From positions 1 through 4,614 of IMG/VR virus record IMGVR_UViG_2663762849_000009: DNA of 4,614 nt; one strand, written 5' to 3'. Numbering within the stretch: the stretch's first letter is position 1; each line of letters begins with the position of its first letter. Both the position numbers and the translations under genes were made by a program. This document shows positions 1 through 4,614 of the stretch, one piece after another. Origin of the DNA: a virus (Duplodnaviria; Heunggongvirae; Uroviricota; Caudoviricetes). The notes below the pieces were generated by a model. The model saw nothing but the letters and a program-made list of their open reading frames with translations, did not search any database and was not told the origin of the DNA.

Positions 1-171
1 GGATGAACCACCGGAGCCAGAACCTGAACCACCTCTGCCGGATGAGCCGCCGGAACCCGAGCCGGAGCCACCGCTACCGGATGAACCACCGGAGCCAGAA
101 CCTGAACCACCACCGGAACTGCCGCCGCCTGGGTTACCACCACCGGAACTGCCACCACCTGAGCTACCGCC
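1..171 (-). repeat. Tandemly repetitive Gly/Ser-coding tract inside the J-like CDS
   Basis: The minus-strand translation is almost entirely Gly and Ser (...GGGSSGGGNPGGGSSGGGSGSGSGGSSGSGGSGSGSGGSSGRGGSGSGSGGSS...). Positions 1-33 and 79-111 are an exact 33-nt direct repeat (ggatgaaccaccggagccagaacctgaaccacc). The 15-mer accaccggaactgcc recurs at 108-122 and 144-158. The tract continues beyond the left edge. Confidence 0.75.
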
Positions 172-2403
172 ATCCTCCTTACCATCGGAGAATGCAGGAT
201 CTACAGCAACTGGTTTCCAGTCGGCAGTACAAACTGTATCATCATCGGGATTACAAATAAGAGGATTACCGGTTGCCTCATAAATACACCCCTGCACATT
301 AACATAACGGGTCCCGTCATCACCTTTATAAACATCAGAAAAAGTCATACCATCAAGAACCGGACGAGAAAGACAAATCTCGTCAGTTGGCGGCTTATTA
401 TATTCAGGTGTCAAATCCCCCTCACCACCCTGAAAAGCAAGGGTGCAGGCTGTCCACTTTTGCTTCACCACCCTCGGCGTGTCCCATTTCGCCAGCGCCA
501 GATACTGGCTGTCAGCTGCGCTCACCTCCACCGTCAGGTGCTGCACTGCCGGTGGGATGACGCTGTTCAGGGTGCCTGACTGCGGCTCAAAGCGGGCTCC
601 GTTATCCACAATGGCTTCTTTTTCCGGTACGTGCTGCACCGCCGTGATGGCAAAGGTGCCGTCCGTGTTTTCCCGGATGGCCACACAGCGGAACAGGCGA
701 CGGCGCAGTGACGGCAGGGAGAGTCCCCACACCCCGTATGTCTCCACACCATCAGGCAGGGTACTGACCTGTATCCGGTCCGGCGCGGGGTGTGCGGTGA
801 TGTCCACACTCACCGGCTTACCGCTGCCGTTAATCAGGTTCACCGTCGATGCACCTGTCCCCGGAAGTGTCACTTCACGGTCCAGCGTCAGGGTGCGGGT
901 GGCAGCATCAATGGACAGGACACGTCCGCCGGTCAGGGTTCCGGCATAGTCGTTATCACAGATTTCAATGATGTCGCCGGGTGTGTGACGCAGCCCCTGT
1001 GACCCGAGTGTGAAATCCACCGTCTGCGTTTCCAGCAGTTCTGTCTTTATCACCCACAGCCCGGCACGGTGGGCCTGACCGCGACTGGTGCAGCCGAACG
1101 CATCCATCTTCAGCAGGTTGCGTCCGTAGCGCAGTATGGCTTCCGGGTCTTCCACCAGTTCCGTGGAGGTCTGCCAGCCGTTCTGCGGGTCGGTGTAATT
1201 CACCTCCACCGCCGTGTGCCGGTCCTTCAGGGCACTGAAGCTGTAGCGGAACCCCACGCCGTTATCATCCACCACCACATCGCTGTTGGTGTACGGCCAC
1301 ACCACATCCGACGTGCGGTCCTGAACGAACGTCAGCGTCTGGCCGTTCCATACCGGCATACAGCGCATCGCCGAGCAGAAATCACTGAGAACGTCCCACG
1401 CCTTACGCTGTTGTGCCAGGTACGCATTAAAGGTCATCCGCGGCTCTGTGCCCCCGAAACCATCCGGGACCGTCTGGTCGCAGTACTGCCCGATGGCATA
1501 CAGCGCCCACTTGTCCACATCCGCCGCCCCCAGACGTTTTCCCATCCCGTAGCGCGGGTGAGTCAGCATGTCCCACAGGCACCAGGCCGGGTTGTTGCTG
1601 TATGCCGGTTTCAGACTGCCGTCCCAGATACCGCTGTAGGTGCGTTTTTCCGGGTCATAGTTTGACGGCACCTGGATGATGCGACCGCGGATATGGTAGT
1701 TCACCGTCATCTGCTGACCACCGAACTGCTCCGCATCCACCTGCAGCCCCACAATCGCCGTGTTCGGGTAGCACTGTTTCACATCGATGATTTCGGTGTA
1801 CGATGACCAGAGTGTTCTGTTCTGCAACTGGTCCGTGGTGCTGTCCGCCGTCTCCCGGACCATCCGGATGTTAAAAGGACGGGGAGGCAGATTATCCAGA
1901 ATCACCGACGCCAGAAACTGCGAGGTGGTCTTGCCGTTAATGGTGACATCCTTTTCTGTCACCCAGTTACCGTTACGCTGTAACTGAATCAGCAGGCGGA
2001 CGGATGTCGGGTTTCGGTCACCCTTTGACGTGGTCTGCACCAGTGACTGCACCCCGAAGGTAACCCGCAGGCGGTCAATGTTCGCGGACGTAATGGTGCG
2101 CGTCACCGGTTTTGCCTTCGTCACTTCCACGCCCAGTACAGTTTCAGCTCCGGAGGACTCAAAGCCTTCCGGTGGTGTCTGCTCCTGCTCCCCGGCGCGC
2201 CAGACCGCCGTCACACCGTGTATCACGGGATTACCGTCCGTGTCCGTCAGCGGGGTTTTGTTCACCAGGATACTCTGCAGTCCCTTCACCGGGCCTTCTA
2301 TCGGTCCCTCACCAACCGCATCAATCACGCTCATCATCTGCGTGGATTTGAGATTATCCTTCGCCTCACGAGGCGTGTGTGCCTTACCGCCACCTTTTCC
2401 CAT
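1..2403 (-). CDS. J: Host specificity protein J / central tail fibre (lambda gpJ family), partial: N-terminal 801 codons in window, C-terminus beyond the left edge
   Basis: Hand translation of the minus strand from ATG at 2401-2403 gives MGKGGGKAHTPREAKDNLKSTQMMSVIDAVGEGPIEGPVKG..., which matches my recollection of lambda gpJ (MGKGSSKGHTPREAKDNLKSTQLLSVIDAISEGPIEGPV...). I checked the frame codon by codon from 2403 to 1 and found no stop. A GGAAGG Shine-Dalgarno lies 4 nt upstream (2408-2413, minus strand). J-like similarity continues to about ...HLTVEVSAADSQYLALAKWDTPRVVK (around nt 455-540), then diverges. It is absent from the ORF track probably because its stop lies outside the window. 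Confidence 0.9.
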   Translation of the reverse strand, partial: MGKGGGKAHTPREAKDNLKSTQMMSVIDAVGEGPIEGPVKGLQSILVNKTPLTDTDGNPVIHGVTAVWRAGEQEQTPPEGFESSGAETVLGVEVTKAKPVTRTITSANIDRLRVTFGVQSLVQTTSKGDRNPTSVRLLIQLQRNGNWVTEKDVTINGKTTSQFLASVILDNLPPRPFNIRMVRETADSTTDQLQNRTLWSSYTEIIDVKQCYPNTAIVGLQVDAEQFGGQQMTVNYHIRGRIIQVPSNYDPEKRTYSGIWDGSLKPAYSNNPAWCLWDMLTHPRYGMGKRLGAADVDKWALYAIGQYCDQTVPDGFGGTEPRMTFNAYLAQQRKAWDVLSDFCSAMRCMPVWNGQTLTFVQDRTSDVVWPYTNSDVVVDDNGVGFRYSFSALKDRHTAVEVNYTDPQNGWQTSTELVEDPEAILRYGRNLLKMDAFGCTSRGQAHRAGLWVIKTELLETQTVDFTLGSQGLRHTPGDIIEICDNDYAGTLTGGRVLSIDAATRTLTLDREVTLPGTGASTVNLINGSGKPVSVDITAHPAPDRIQVSTLPDGVETYGVWGLSLPSLRRRLFRCVAIRENTDGTFAITAVQHVPEKEAIVDNGARFEPQSGTLNSVIPPAVQHLTVEVSAADSQYLALAKWDTPRVVKQKWTACTLAFQGGEGDLTPEYNKPPTDEICLSRPVLDGMTFSDVYKGDDGTRYVNVQGCIYEATGNPLICNPDDDTVCTADWKPVAVDPAFSDGKEDGGSSGGGSSGGGNPGGGSSGGGSGSGSGGSSGSGGSGSGSGGSSGRGGSGSGSGGSS

Positions 2404-2506
2404 ACAGCCTTCCCCTGAATAAATTAACCGCCACTTGCCATTCCGTACAGAAGTCGGATATCCTTCGCCCGAAAAGCATGAAACACATTTCTGCCATGCT
2501 AAAGAG

Positions 2507-2541
2507 AAACCCCGGTATCAGCAGATACCGGGGTTTTCTTT
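2507..2541 (+). terminator. Intrinsic (rho-independent) terminator hairpin, possibly bidirectional
   Basis: Perfect 12-bp inverted repeat aaaccccggtat (2507-2518) / ataccggggttt (2525-2536) with loop cagcag, followed by ttttcttt on the plus strand. On the minus strand the stem is followed by a weaker T-rich stretch (tttctcttt). Confidence 0.6.
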
Positions 2542-2608
2542 CATGTCCACCGATAATCCTGTTGGTAAAAACCGGTAATGGCATAAAAATTCTGAATATC
2601 TTCACATT

Positions 2609-2636
2609 TTCACAAACTGACTGTGGCGCGTATAAT
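2609..2636 (+). promoter_or_regulatory. Sigma70-like promoter: -35 TTCACA (2609-2614), 16-nt spacer, -10 TATAAT (2631-2636)
   Basis: Consensus -10 hexamer and a 5/6 match to the -35 hexamer with near-optimal spacing, in an AT-rich intergenic region. It points rightward, antisense to the tail operon. Confidence 0.4.
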
Positions 2637-2703
2637 TTCGCTGCGTTAGTGTTTTTTTGCCCGAGTAACAAAAACAACTCCTTAACTCTAATCTTTGTCT
2701 GTC

Positions 2704-2737
2704 CCCGCAGCTCCGCGATCACTGCGGGATTTTTTTA
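2704..2737 (+). terminator. Intrinsic terminator-like hairpin plus T-tract on the plus strand
   Basis: Stem cccgcag (2704-2710) / ctgcggg (2722-2728) with an 11-nt loop, followed by seven T (2730-2736). It lies just downstream of the I stop codon in the I-J spacer. Confidence 0.5.
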
Positions 2738-2743
2738 TTCTTT

Positions 2744-3424
2744 TTACCCCTGCCGCCCGATAACCACGACCTTTCCGCACCCGCCTTCATCACGGGTACT
2801 GATGTCCTGGGATATACGGCGGGAGCCAACCAGCATTTCCCCGTAAGGCACCGGCATCGGGTTACCCTGGGCAATCATGTTGTCCAGTGACGAAAAATAC
2901 GTGTTCTGTCTGCCGTTATCCGTTGCGCGGTAATCCGGTGTTTTTGCCTTCGGGGCCAGCATCTGGGCCACACCACCCAGAATCATGCTGGCCCCCAGTG
3001 AAAACAGCATCGTGGTGGCAGAAAAACCGCCGGCACTCAGGGCTGTACCCCATAACGCCATCGAGGCACCGGCAGTGAGGAAAGAGCCCACGATGGCTGC
3101 CGCCCCCAGCACAATCTGCAGTCCACCCTTTCCGGCCCCGGCCAGTCGCGGCACAATATGGATAACCGTTCCCTCACTCAGTGGTTCGTGAAGGCGGGCA
3201 TACACCGCCTCCGGTGCCGTATCCTCACCGGCAATGCGTATCTGGTACCAGCCTTCGTTCATCTGACGGCGAAAGCCCGGCACCTGCATCGACAGTGCGC
3301 GGATGGCTTCCGCTGCCGTGTTCACATACAGGCTGAGGCGGCGGCCAAATCGTTGTAAATCCCCGTGAAGGCAGATGCGTGCCAGTGGCGGTGACGCCAG
3401 ACAGAATGCGTTCGTCGTTGCCAT
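2744..3424 (-). CDS. I: Tail assembly protein I (lambda gpI family)
   Basis: The 226-aa ORF (MATTNAFCLASPPLARICLHGDLQRFGRRL...TDNGRQNTYFSSLDNMIAQGNPMPVPYGEMLVGSRRISQDISTRDEGGCGKVVVIGRQG) closely resembles my recollection of lambda gpI (223 aa), including the ARICLYGDLQRFGRR and TDNGKQNTYFSSLDNM blocks. Its start overlaps the 3' end of the K reading frame by 103 nt, as in lambda. TAA stop at 2744-2746. Confidence 0.9.
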   Translation of the reverse strand: MATTNAFCLASPPLARICLHGDLQRFGRRLSLYVNTAAEAIRALSMQVPGFRRQMNEGWYQIRIAGEDTAPEAVYARLHEPLSEGTVIHIVPRLAGAGKGGLQIVLGAAAIVGSFLTAGASMALWGTALSAGGFSATTMLFSLGASMILGGVAQMLAPKAKTPDYRATDNGRQNTYFSSLDNMIAQGNPMPVPYGEMLVGSRRISQDISTRDEGGCGKVVVIGRQG

Positions 3425-3798: not shown

Positions 3799-4054
3799 TC
3801 TTTATCTGCAGCCGCCGGTCCGCCTCGCTCAGCCAGGGCAGACCACCGGGATGACTGTGGACCAGCGCCACAATCTCCCCCTGCATCTCTGCCCGCAGCC
3901 AGTCTTCCGGCGCAATACGAAAATACGCCTCCGGCTCTGCGGAAATATTCACACAAGGGATATACCGCTCCCCCTCCGGCGTTCTCACCACGAAGCCGCA
4001 CGACTCCGCAGGCGCACACCGCCGGGCATGTGCCAATATATTGCTATAGAGCAT
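3770..4054 (-). CDS. K: Tail tip assembly protein K (lambda gpK family), N-terminal MPN/JAMM domain portion; ends prematurely at TGA 3770-3772
   Basis: Translation MLYSNILAHARRCAPAESCGFVVRTPEGERYIPCVNISAEPEAYFRIAPEDWLRAEMQGEIVALVHSHPGGLPWLSEADRRLQIKS... contains an exact JAMM motif (E...HSHPGGLPWLSEAD, i.e. HxHx7Sx2D). I place the start at ATG 4052-4054, which has an AGGAG Shine-Dalgarno (4061-4065, minus strand), rather than the track's ATG at 4091-4093, which sits inside the terminator hairpin. Confidence 0.75.
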   Translation of the reverse strand: MLYSNILAHARRCAPAESCGFVVRTPEGERYIPCVNISAEPEAYFRIAPEDWLRAEMQGEIVALVHSHPGGLPWLSEADRRLQIKSALVAGLPG

Positions 4055-4108: not shown

Positions 4109-4531
4109 TTAGTAGTGATGCAGTGAAGGCGGCAACTCTTTGCTCTTAAGCCTTACCCATGCGGAAAGATTCGTTGGTCCATCTGGCTCATTAATATCAA
4201 CATCTCGTGTGTGATTGATTAAAACGTCTCTCGCCATTCCAATAACATACGAGAACTCATGGCCGTAGTTGTAGCACCTGTCAGAATAGTTCGATTGAAT
4301 TTGCTTTAGCGCCGGATACAGTTCGCGGAATAATGCCTGTGAGCGGTTGGCATAATCCCATAGCCATACAAGGCTGTTTGCTTCTTTTGCGGAAAGCTCG
4401 TTGGTTTTCTTCTCTTGTTTGCCAATGAACTCACCTTCAAGCACTACCCTGTGGATGTACTCTACGGCCAGCGGGATTTGTTCAATTGAAAGTTCATCAA
4501 TGCTGTCAATACCAAAACGCTGATGAACCAT
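4109..4531 (-). CDS. Hypothetical protein, function unknown (AT-rich moron-like ORF upstream of K)
   Basis: A 140-codon ORF on the same strand as the tail genes. My hand counts of 60-nt stretches give roughly 40-43% GC here against roughly 60% in the J gene. An intrinsic terminator follows it immediately (4067-4090). I recognise no family from the sequence. No obvious Shine-Dalgarno precedes the ATG at 4529-4531. Confidence 0.55.
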
Positions 4532-4555
4532 ATTGTATGCATCGTCATAGCGAAG

Positions 4556-4614
4556 TCATTTCTTTCCTACCAGCATGTTTACTGCATCGCGTAGAGGTGT
4601 GCGTTCAGCTACTG
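4556..4614 (-). CDS. Possible 3' end of an upstream ORF entering from the right edge (last 18 codons, ...VAERTPLRDAVNMLVGKK, then TGA)
   Basis: This is the only minus-strand frame open from the window edge to 4559, and it is the same frame as the 4109..4531 ORF, separated from it by TGA at 4556-4558. Eighteen stop-free codons is weak evidence on its own. Confidence 0.25.
   Translation of the reverse strand, partial: VAERTPLRDAVNMLVGKK

Follow-up and report, generated by a model that had tools for sequence, protein, structure and literature searches.

The 340-nt gap between the tail genes I and J of this prophage is very probably made up of two independent cassettes, inserted where lambda has a 60-nt intergenic hairpin: a gene for the small RNA PasB, and a module carrying a terminator-like hairpin that is a predicted insulator. 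The right-hand cassette (module B, 2583–2743) is, judging from its sequence, a complete pasB small-RNA gene on the plus strand, antisense to the tail operon. The principal element of the gap is a published sRNA gene; to this extent the finding is already known and leaves current understanding unchanged.

The window, by which we mean the whole 4,614-nt stretch that was analysed, covers the tail region of a lambdoid prophage, with the operon on the minus strand. The gap and the genes around it are arranged as follows:

4531–4109, minus strand: antirepressor-like ORF (P22AR C-terminal domain)
4093–3322, minus strand: K, with JAB and NlpC/P60 domains
2744–3325, minus strand: tail assembly gene I (Pfam Lambda_tail_I), 193 aa from a GTG at 3325, as in RefSeq relatives
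2404–2743, no strand assigned: I–J intergenic region, composed of module A (2404–2582) and module B (2583–2743)
466–2403, minus strand: tail tip gene J, GpJ (FNIII-A_GpJ, Phage-tail_3, Ig_J), first 646 codons only

A longer, lambda-style ORF for I extends to 3424, and an apparent fusion, either real or an assembly artefact, carries the J ORF past position 465 of the window into g3p-like sequence of foreign, inovirus type. In contrast to pasB and the hairpin, which are intact, three genes of the window are damaged: K, J and the antirepressor-like gene.

The I stop codon (TAA, minus strand) lies at 2744–2746 and the J start codon (ATG, minus strand) at 2403–2401, and the gap therefore spans 2404–2743, or 340 nt. 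As the initial annotation had noted, it is AT-rich relative to its flanks, with a GC content of 0.432 (0.469 in the left part and 0.391 in the right part), compared to 0.600 for J and 0.603 for I. The statement that the two genes are only a few tens of nucleotides apart in lambda was also accurate: the lambda gap is 60 nt, and the gap was 59–60 nt in all 74 parsed loci with a lambda-type I. By comparison, the gap was 234–343 nt and carried pasB in all 62 parsed loci with the window-type I allele. By these gap lengths, the spacer is an insertion relative to the lambda-type gaps, and pasB is additional DNA that goes with a single family of I alleles. The arrangement is moron-like, in that the gap DNA sits between conserved genes and is missing from lambda-type relatives, and pasB has a predicted promoter and terminator of its own. 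(Expression from a lysogen has been reported for E2348/69 only.) The earlier description of the gap as an inserted non-coding module was correct about the extra DNA, but the right half of that DNA is the pasB sRNA gene.

PasB (pathogenicity-associated small RNA B) was found by RIL-seq in EPEC O127:H6 E2348/69 as an 83-nt RNA from prophage PP6 (NC_011601, 1466343..1466261, minus strand; Table S6), situated between E2348C_1436 and E2348C_1437, and was validated on northern blots probed with AATCCCGCAGTGATCGCGGAGCT (Pearl Mizrahi et al., Sci Adv 2021, PMC8550237). In RefSeq, the two flanking genes are a tail assembly protein (I) and gpJ, and PasB is antisense in the 240-nt gap between them; the window shows the same placement, with pasB antisense in a lambdoid I–J gap. 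The northern probe is the exact reverse complement of window positions 2709–2731 (23 nt). When the window was compared with the PP6 gap of E2348/69, near-identity extended from 2583 to the I stop codon, including both the promoter and the terminator. Within the RNA itself, 75 of 83 positions are identical, the remainder being accounted for by four substitutions and a 4-nt deletion (TTCA). An antisense pasB between I and J was also present in Sakai Sp12 and in the ASU11, PhiR12 and Stx2c phages. The allele of the window is carried by E. coli G1/2 and by O157:H7 Sakai Sp12, where the arrangement lies at NC_002695 2217392–2217732 and pasB at about 2217630–2217727, on the plus strand.

The expression of PasB, its dependence on Hfq and its partners are taken from the literature. 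In a delta-hfq strain, the log2 fold change of PasB was -6.8 in the activating and -2.4 in the non-activating condition, the latter being the one in which PasB was commoner; its 37 RIL-seq interactions involved core and virulence mRNAs as partners, in trans, in the lysogen (PMC8550237). A preprint has since reported 1,158 PasB hits; of the Pas sRNAs, PasB had the least diverse synteny and was put forward as the most ancient (Zhu, Shabalina & Storz, bioRxiv 2026, 10.64898/2026.05.13.724894). In agreement with the preprint, a 391-nt query around the gap matched 1,664 of 5,426 complete E. coli genomes, together with 53 phage records. An Rfam scan of the whole window with E up to 1 returned nothing, and a full-text literature search did not find the sequences of the hairpin or of the PasB terminator.

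Neither the promoter nor the terminator of pasB had been picked up in the initial annotation. The gene is laid out as follows:

2583–2608, plus strand: AT-rich stretch before the pasB promoter, without variation among the aligned alleles
2609–2636, plus strand: pasB promoter, near-consensus sigma-70, with -35 TTCACA, a 16-nt spacer and -10 TATAAT (11/12 consensus)
2643–2736, plus strand: predicted primary pasB transcript, 94 nt, its start placed from the position of the -10
2652–2658, plus strand: U-run
2658–2736, plus strand: PasB as annotated in E2348/69, transferred by alignment (79 nt here, compared to 83 nt)
2667–2678, plus strand: A-rich (A-R-N)x4 run AACAAAAACAAC, read as AAC AAA AAC AAC
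2678–2683, plus strand: CUCCUU, anti-Shine-Dalgarno-like
2689–2695, plus strand: UAAUCUU
2704–2736, plus strand: pasB intrinsic terminator, with stem CCCGCAG/CTGCGGG (2704–2710/2722–2728), an 11-nt loop, and an A followed by seven T (2730–2736)

The promoter was the best promoter-like site in the window in a consensus scan. The same site is found in E2348/69 and in the Stx2c phage, and it is kept in alleles that are only ~81% identical overall. Upstream of it, a CRP-like TCTGA-N6-TCACA (2591–2606) matches at 9/10 positions, a match that is not significant alone, with 35 of 200 shuffles giving at least one match in the window. At the other end of the gene, consensus prediction gave a terminator with a 7-bp stem and a U7 tail, which ends 7 nt short of the I stop codon.

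Conservation within the gene was assessed in a set of 34 distinct pasB alleles, taken from IMG/VR and from individual loci. The sequence GCGTTA occupies positions +1 to +6 (from window position 2643) in 32 of them, and the other two have single substitutions (GCGCTA and GCATTA). The U-run, three to four A-R-N triplets, the CU-rich box, UAAUCUU and the terminator stem are common to all or nearly all alleles. The terminator stem is identical throughout, an invariance that is partly by construction, since part of the terminator motif was used to collect the alleles; the loop varies in both sequence and length. RNAalifold, run on 14 PasB alleles, supported only this invariant stem and detected no covariation anywhere in PasB, and the body of the RNA is best regarded as single-stranded. 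Upstream of the annotated 5' end, the conservation of GCGTTA and of the U-run suggests that the primary transcript starts at 2643. The annotated 5' end of PasB (equivalent to 2658) falls 15 nt downstream of this promoter-predicted start. Either the published, coverage-based end is imprecise, or the RNA is processed, or the start at 2643 is wrong. Hfq-dependent sRNAs combine an A-R-N tract, which binds the distal face, with a U-tail, which binds the proximal face, and an exposed seed. By analogy, the layout of PasB, with its putative seed, would fit that of an Hfq-bound, trans-acting base-pairing sRNA.

The window allele differs from E2348/69 PasB in several respects. At PasB position 27 it carries an A, which it shares with the common “PasB-2”, and it has three further substitutions. 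Its 4-nt deletion is located just upstream of the terminator, in the seed region proposed in the preprint (10.64898/2026.05.13.724894), and its targets may therefore differ from those of EPEC PasB. This TTCA-deletion allele (CTCTAATC) is a minority variant, present in roughly a tenth of loci. The window pasB is also joined to a 197-nt left cassette, compared to one of 95 nt in E2348/69.

When the gap variants were compared with each other, homology began abruptly at window position 2583. The slot to the left of this point was occupied by two classes of sequence, unrelated to each other, among 118 loci. The long class (71 loci) corresponds to module A of the window and covers the 197 nt that separate the J start from the promoter; in one of the 71, a 47-nt deletion removes the hairpin. 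The short class (the other 47) is a module of 94–104 nt with a different hairpin, CAGGCA(C/T)C...G(G/A)TGCCTG, followed by TTGTTTTT on the tail-operon (sense) strand. Its variants have one stem pair exchanged on both sides, from C-G to T-A. Left and right cassettes were found in all combinations among prophages, and the cassettes therefore recombine independently. A third occupant of the left slot was found in E. coli cM8a (NZ_CM176589), where a sodC moron, on the same strand as pasB, fills the interval from the J start to the pasB promoter and ends with a plus-strand terminator just upstream of that promoter. Unlike module A, the sodC cassette is protein-coding and ~740 nt long, and the two share no homology.

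Module A itself was found in 1,446 of 5,426 complete E. coli genomes (~27%), as well as in 13 phage records and in E. albertii. Identity was 95% or more in each of the 1,451 records; module A is near-invariant at this level, and its conservation therefore says nothing about its function. We found no homology to module A outside the I–J gaps of Escherichia; three other genome matches were unrelated generic hairpins. A mobile or repeated element was considered and rejected, as module A is confined to Escherichia I–J gaps, including those of E. albertii. The initial annotation had also offered a moron remnant as the origin of the spacer. For the hairpin half this idea did not survive, since there is no homology either with the sodC moron of cM8a or with anything outside these gaps.

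Two features of module A were considered as possible functional elements:

2435–2464, plus strand: weak promoter-like site TTGCCA-18-TATCCT (9/12, the lowest-scoring class)
2501–2542, no strand assigned: strong hairpin between an A-tract and a T-tract, a candidate intrinsic terminator for both directions

The core of the hairpin consists of two 13-nt arms (2507–2519 and 2524–2536) that are 100% complementary, with eight G-C pairs, around the 4-nt loop AGCA. Flanking A/T pairs extend the stem to 2501–2542, and the whole forms the stable, GC-rich stem-loop expected of an intrinsic terminator. It had been described as a perfect 12-bp hairpin with a T-tract; the hairpin was borne out, with T-rich tracts on both sides, but the stem is 13 bp. 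The calculated folding energies are -26.0 kcal/mol for the plus strand and -27.1 for the minus strand, compared to an average of about -8 for shuffled sequences (z -8.4 and -7.6, respectively), and none of 200 shuffles folded as well. The fold that had been proposed as a check was thereby confirmed.

On the plus strand, the stem ends in GGGG followed by UUUUCUUUC; the scanner called a terminator here, and in the consensus scan the hairpin was the top-ranked plus-strand terminator-like site in the window. On the minus strand, GGGG is followed by UUUCUCUUU, with 7 U in 9 and thus a similar U content, which falls narrowly below the scanner rule and gave no call. The earlier view that the hairpin is oriented to stop plus-strand and possibly also minus-strand transcription agrees with this result: it looks like a two-way terminator, with the scanner call on the plus strand only. 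The pasB -35 follows the hairpin after 67 nt on the plus strand, and the J start follows it after ~100 nt on the minus strand. A scan of the window found no minus-strand promoter, divergent from pasB, whose transcript the hairpin might terminate. A possible antiterminator pairing between 2526–2536 and 2567–2577 (82% over 11 nt) was discarded as too short to tell from chance. Most simply, the hairpin is an intrinsic terminator and a candidate for termination in both directions, although what it does in the phage, here and below, is something that we infer.

Lambda, short-type and long-type gaps all place a hairpin with a U-rich tail immediately before J on the operon strand, so that its position is constant while its sequence takes three unrelated forms. 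Positional analogues of unrelated sequence are present in the E2348/69, PhiR12 and Stx2c prophages, where the scanner flagged sense-strand terminators; in E2348/69 and the Stx2c phage, the flagged element is the short-class hairpin. The lambda I–J hairpin (J02459, 15445–15504) resembles that of the window in being GC-rich, in having a U-rich tract after it when read on the tail-operon strand, and in its place directly before the J ribosome-binding site. Among the 74 lambda-type loci it has the form AAACCGCC-NNNN-GGCGGTTT followed by TGTC(A/G)TTTAT, with variation almost entirely in the loop. It differs from the hairpin of the window in that its sequence is unrelated, its stem is of a shorter type (8–10 bp) and weaker, and no sRNA gene adjoins it. 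The simple scanner made no terminator call at the lambda hairpin, and a literature search for a lambda I–J terminator gave nothing relevant. We know of no experimental study of its function.

The closest parallels to PasB in other lambdoid prophages are AgvB and AsxR, the anti-sRNAs of EHEC prophages (Tree et al., Mol Cell 2014, PMC4104026). Like PasB, these are short, Hfq-binding RNAs of lambdoid prophages that are convergent to late genes and occupy a moron site, and they have A-R-N motifs 5' of a conserved terminator. However, they are encoded downstream of PR' rather than in the tail operon, are 51–60 nt long compared to ~80–94 nt for PasB, and show no similarity to PasB either in sequence or to their Rfam models. 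AgvB, the GcvB sponge, was guessed at from the CA-rich run in the gap and was rejected: it lies downstream of PR', is 60 nt long, and its Rfam model gave no hit. The AgvB/AsxR family as a whole (RF02702/RF02703) was likewise rejected, with no Rfam hit at E up to 1 and a locus in the tail operon. To our knowledge, no sponge activity has been described for PasB.

Four other readings of the gap were weighed against the two-cassette arrangement. According to the simplest of them, the gap is purely a non-coding spacer or moron remnant in which the hairpin is the sole functional element, insulating J or attenuating read-through from I to J. The hairpin is indeed real and strong, and the gap is extra DNA relative to lambda, but half of it is a promoter–RNA–terminator unit with a layout identical to that of the validated PasB and a sequence ~90% identical to it, and module A lacks homology to any known moron, including the sodC cassette that occupies the same slot. 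We regard this reading as very improbable. Still harder to credit is a small protein, whether encoded by the plus-strand ORF at 2379–2846 (155 aa, with an internal ATG at 2478), by the minus-strand ORF at 2722–2384 (112 aa), or by the 66-aa “hypothetical protein” of ASU11. Long open frames do cross the gap on both strands, and one phage record (ASU11) annotates an ORF there. These frames, however, span a promoter, a validated sRNA and two terminator hairpins; Sakai Sp12 lacks 1 nt, corresponding to window 2506, and both frames are broken there; and 4-nt indels and variable T-runs among relatives do not preserve a reading frame. RefSeq annotates nothing between I and J in the ~1,450 genomes that carry module A. 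Coding ORFs across the gap were ruled out by the frame-breaking indels, and a spacer conserved as coding sequence in related phages, which had been named as the result that would speak against a non-coding module, was not what we found.

The remaining two readings concern what the cassettes do. The hairpin might act on the late mRNA, by protecting or processing its 3' end and thereby setting the amounts of I and J message, with PasB acting as a cis-antisense RNA. The precedent would be lambda OOP, a short phage RNA that has its own promoter and terminator and is transcribed convergently with, and antisense to, a phage operon; it covers the 3' end of the cII coding sequence and exerts a cis effect through RNase III. 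In the lambda, short-type and long-type gaps alike, J is immediately preceded by a sense-strand hairpin, of unrelated sequence in each, which is in keeping with such a role, and ~94 nt of the late transcript must by construction be perfectly complementary to PasB. Unlike OOP, however, PasB overlaps no coding sequence, nor does it reach the J ribosome-binding site, and the documented partners through which it was discovered are the core and virulence mRNAs with which it interacts in trans in the lysogen. On balance, this combination appears unlikely.

Alternatively, module A may be a second plus-strand unit in tandem with pasB. Speculatively, the weak promoter (2435–2464) and the hairpin could define a plus-strand RNA of ~70 nt (~2471–2541), with a 5' stem-loop (AGCAUG...CAUGCU) and the hairpin at 2501–2542 as its terminator. 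The 9/12 promoter-like site and the plus-strand terminator call are compatible with such a unit, as are the fold of an 81-nt segment (2466–2546; -32.5 kcal/mol, z -7.2), the plus-strand sodC of cM8a with its terminator just upstream of the pasB promoter, and the repeats D3 and D5, through which module A is weakly and colinearly similar to the pasB unit. But the promoter belongs to the weakest class, which shuffled sequences also produce, the z-score of the fold is dominated by the terminator hairpin, and the repeats are short enough to arise by chance. Furthermore, in the alternative short cassette the only terminator is a minus-strand one, and the EcOnc list contains no Hfq-bound RNA in the Sakai Sp12 interval equivalent to the gap (Tree et al. 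2014, PMC4104026). A second sRNA starting at ~2471 and ending at 2541, or else a Q-sensitive switch that silences J in lysogens while PasB is made, is to our minds quite unlikely.

We therefore return to the arrangement of a pasB gene next to a terminator-like insulator, for which identity with PasB, the promoter and terminator anatomy, and the structure and distribution of the cassettes come from the present analysis. In the proposed scheme, module B would be an sRNA moron, whose plus-strand promoter drives an RNA of ~80–94 nt that is antisense and convergent to the tail operon and that would be ended by a Rho-independent terminator of its own, shortly ahead of the I stop codon. The lysogen could express pasB because no late-gene transcription is needed, and PasB would then act through Hfq on host and accessory mRNAs, as described in the literature. 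On the minus strand, the hairpin may stop polymerase that is not modified by Q and that has left I and passed through pasB in the antisense direction, before it reaches J; such polymerase could have started at the upstream antirepressor-like moron or at spurious promoters. On the plus strand, the long-form hairpin may stop antisense transcription that emerges from J and would otherwise run over the pasB promoter. In lytic growth, polymerase antiterminated by Q would pass the hairpin. The passage of Q-modified polymerase through terminators is the basis of late antitermination in lambda, and the hairpin can be pictured as a bidirectional insulator that would be overridden by late-gene antitermination.

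Since pasB is without an Rfam model and without annotation in the genome records examined, this interval will keep being flagged as an odd spacer. In the tail-gene family to which the window belongs, the I–J junction is a hot spot for cassettes, in which pasB is always present and the left slot holds the short hairpin, the long module or sodC. The intact pasB in an otherwise decayed prophage fits the view taken in the preprint (10.64898/2026.05.13.724894), that PasB is an old sRNA outliving its prophage.

In the close relative E. coli cM8a, the interval between the start of the tail tip gene J and the promoter of the small-RNA gene pasB is filled by a moron that encodes a Cu/Zn superoxide dismutase (sodC). 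Since this cassette occupies the slot between J and the tail assembly gene I, the I–J junction is a cassette hot spot. The features of the junction considered here are:

2442–3345 of the cM8a locus (L215): interval containing the sodC moron, which lies on the pasB strand and has its own terminator
2591–2606 of the window: CRP-like site, TCTGA-N6-TCACA, immediately upstream of the pasB −35 box

The CRP-like site agrees with the CRP core consensus at 9 of 10 positions, a match that is not significant by itself, with at least one per window in 35 of 200 shuffles. It is unchanged in every allele, even those in which the pasB −35 box has diverged, and its centre lies at about −44.5, 3 bp away from the classical class II position. 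PasB is reportedly more abundant in LB than in DMEM with glucose (PMC8550237).

The large hairpin in the I–J gap (2501–2542), a candidate terminator, has a right arm of which positions 2526–2536 are 82% complementary to 2567–2577 (AAAAACCGGTA), 30 nt apart, a length too small to be distinguished from chance. On the operon (minus) strand, this pairing could form an alternative structure that competes with the terminator. A near-identical stem, GAAACCCCGGTATC-GATA-GATACCGGGGTTTTT, is found in a terminator-like context at 3978–4005 of a sequence from an Oscillospiraceae MAG (L218). This bacterium is unrelated, and stems like that of the large hairpin can evidently originate independently.

Outside the junction, the window contains the following features:

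4109–4614, minus strand: antirepressor-like gene with a P22AR C-terminal domain, upstream of the tail gene K
4091–4072, minus strand: predicted terminator, after the antirepressor-like gene
4093–3322, minus strand: K, a tail protein gene with JAB and NlpC/P60 domains
1–465, minus strand: segment fused to J, encoding a Phage_Coat_A domain and then a Gly/Ser linker

Whereas lambda has nothing upstream of K at this position, the window has the antirepressor-like gene, which, with its own minus-strand terminator, is another moron. Compared with strain cM8a, it carries a GGA-to-TGA nonsense change (stop at about 4556–4558). In relatives, K is an intact gene of 738–744 nt; in the window, 5 nt of it (CAGGG) are missing at about 3791, where there is a short direct repeat, and this deletion breaks K into two ORFs.

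The J reading frame leaves J sequence at codon 647 and continues in frame into the foreign segment, with the junction at 463–465 and a microhomology of 3 nt. The segment matches a g3p-like gene from a filamentous (inovirus) prophage of strain 100416, starting at codon 106 of that gene, with 99.6–100% identity. Zot, a secretin and a replication endonuclease are also encoded by this prophage. The junction was absent from all complete RefSeq E. coli genomes. The fusion is either a natural chimera of a tail-tip and a filamentous-phage adsorption protein or an assembly artefact. Together, the lesions in the antirepressor-like gene, K and J suggest a prophage in decay that retains an intact pasB.
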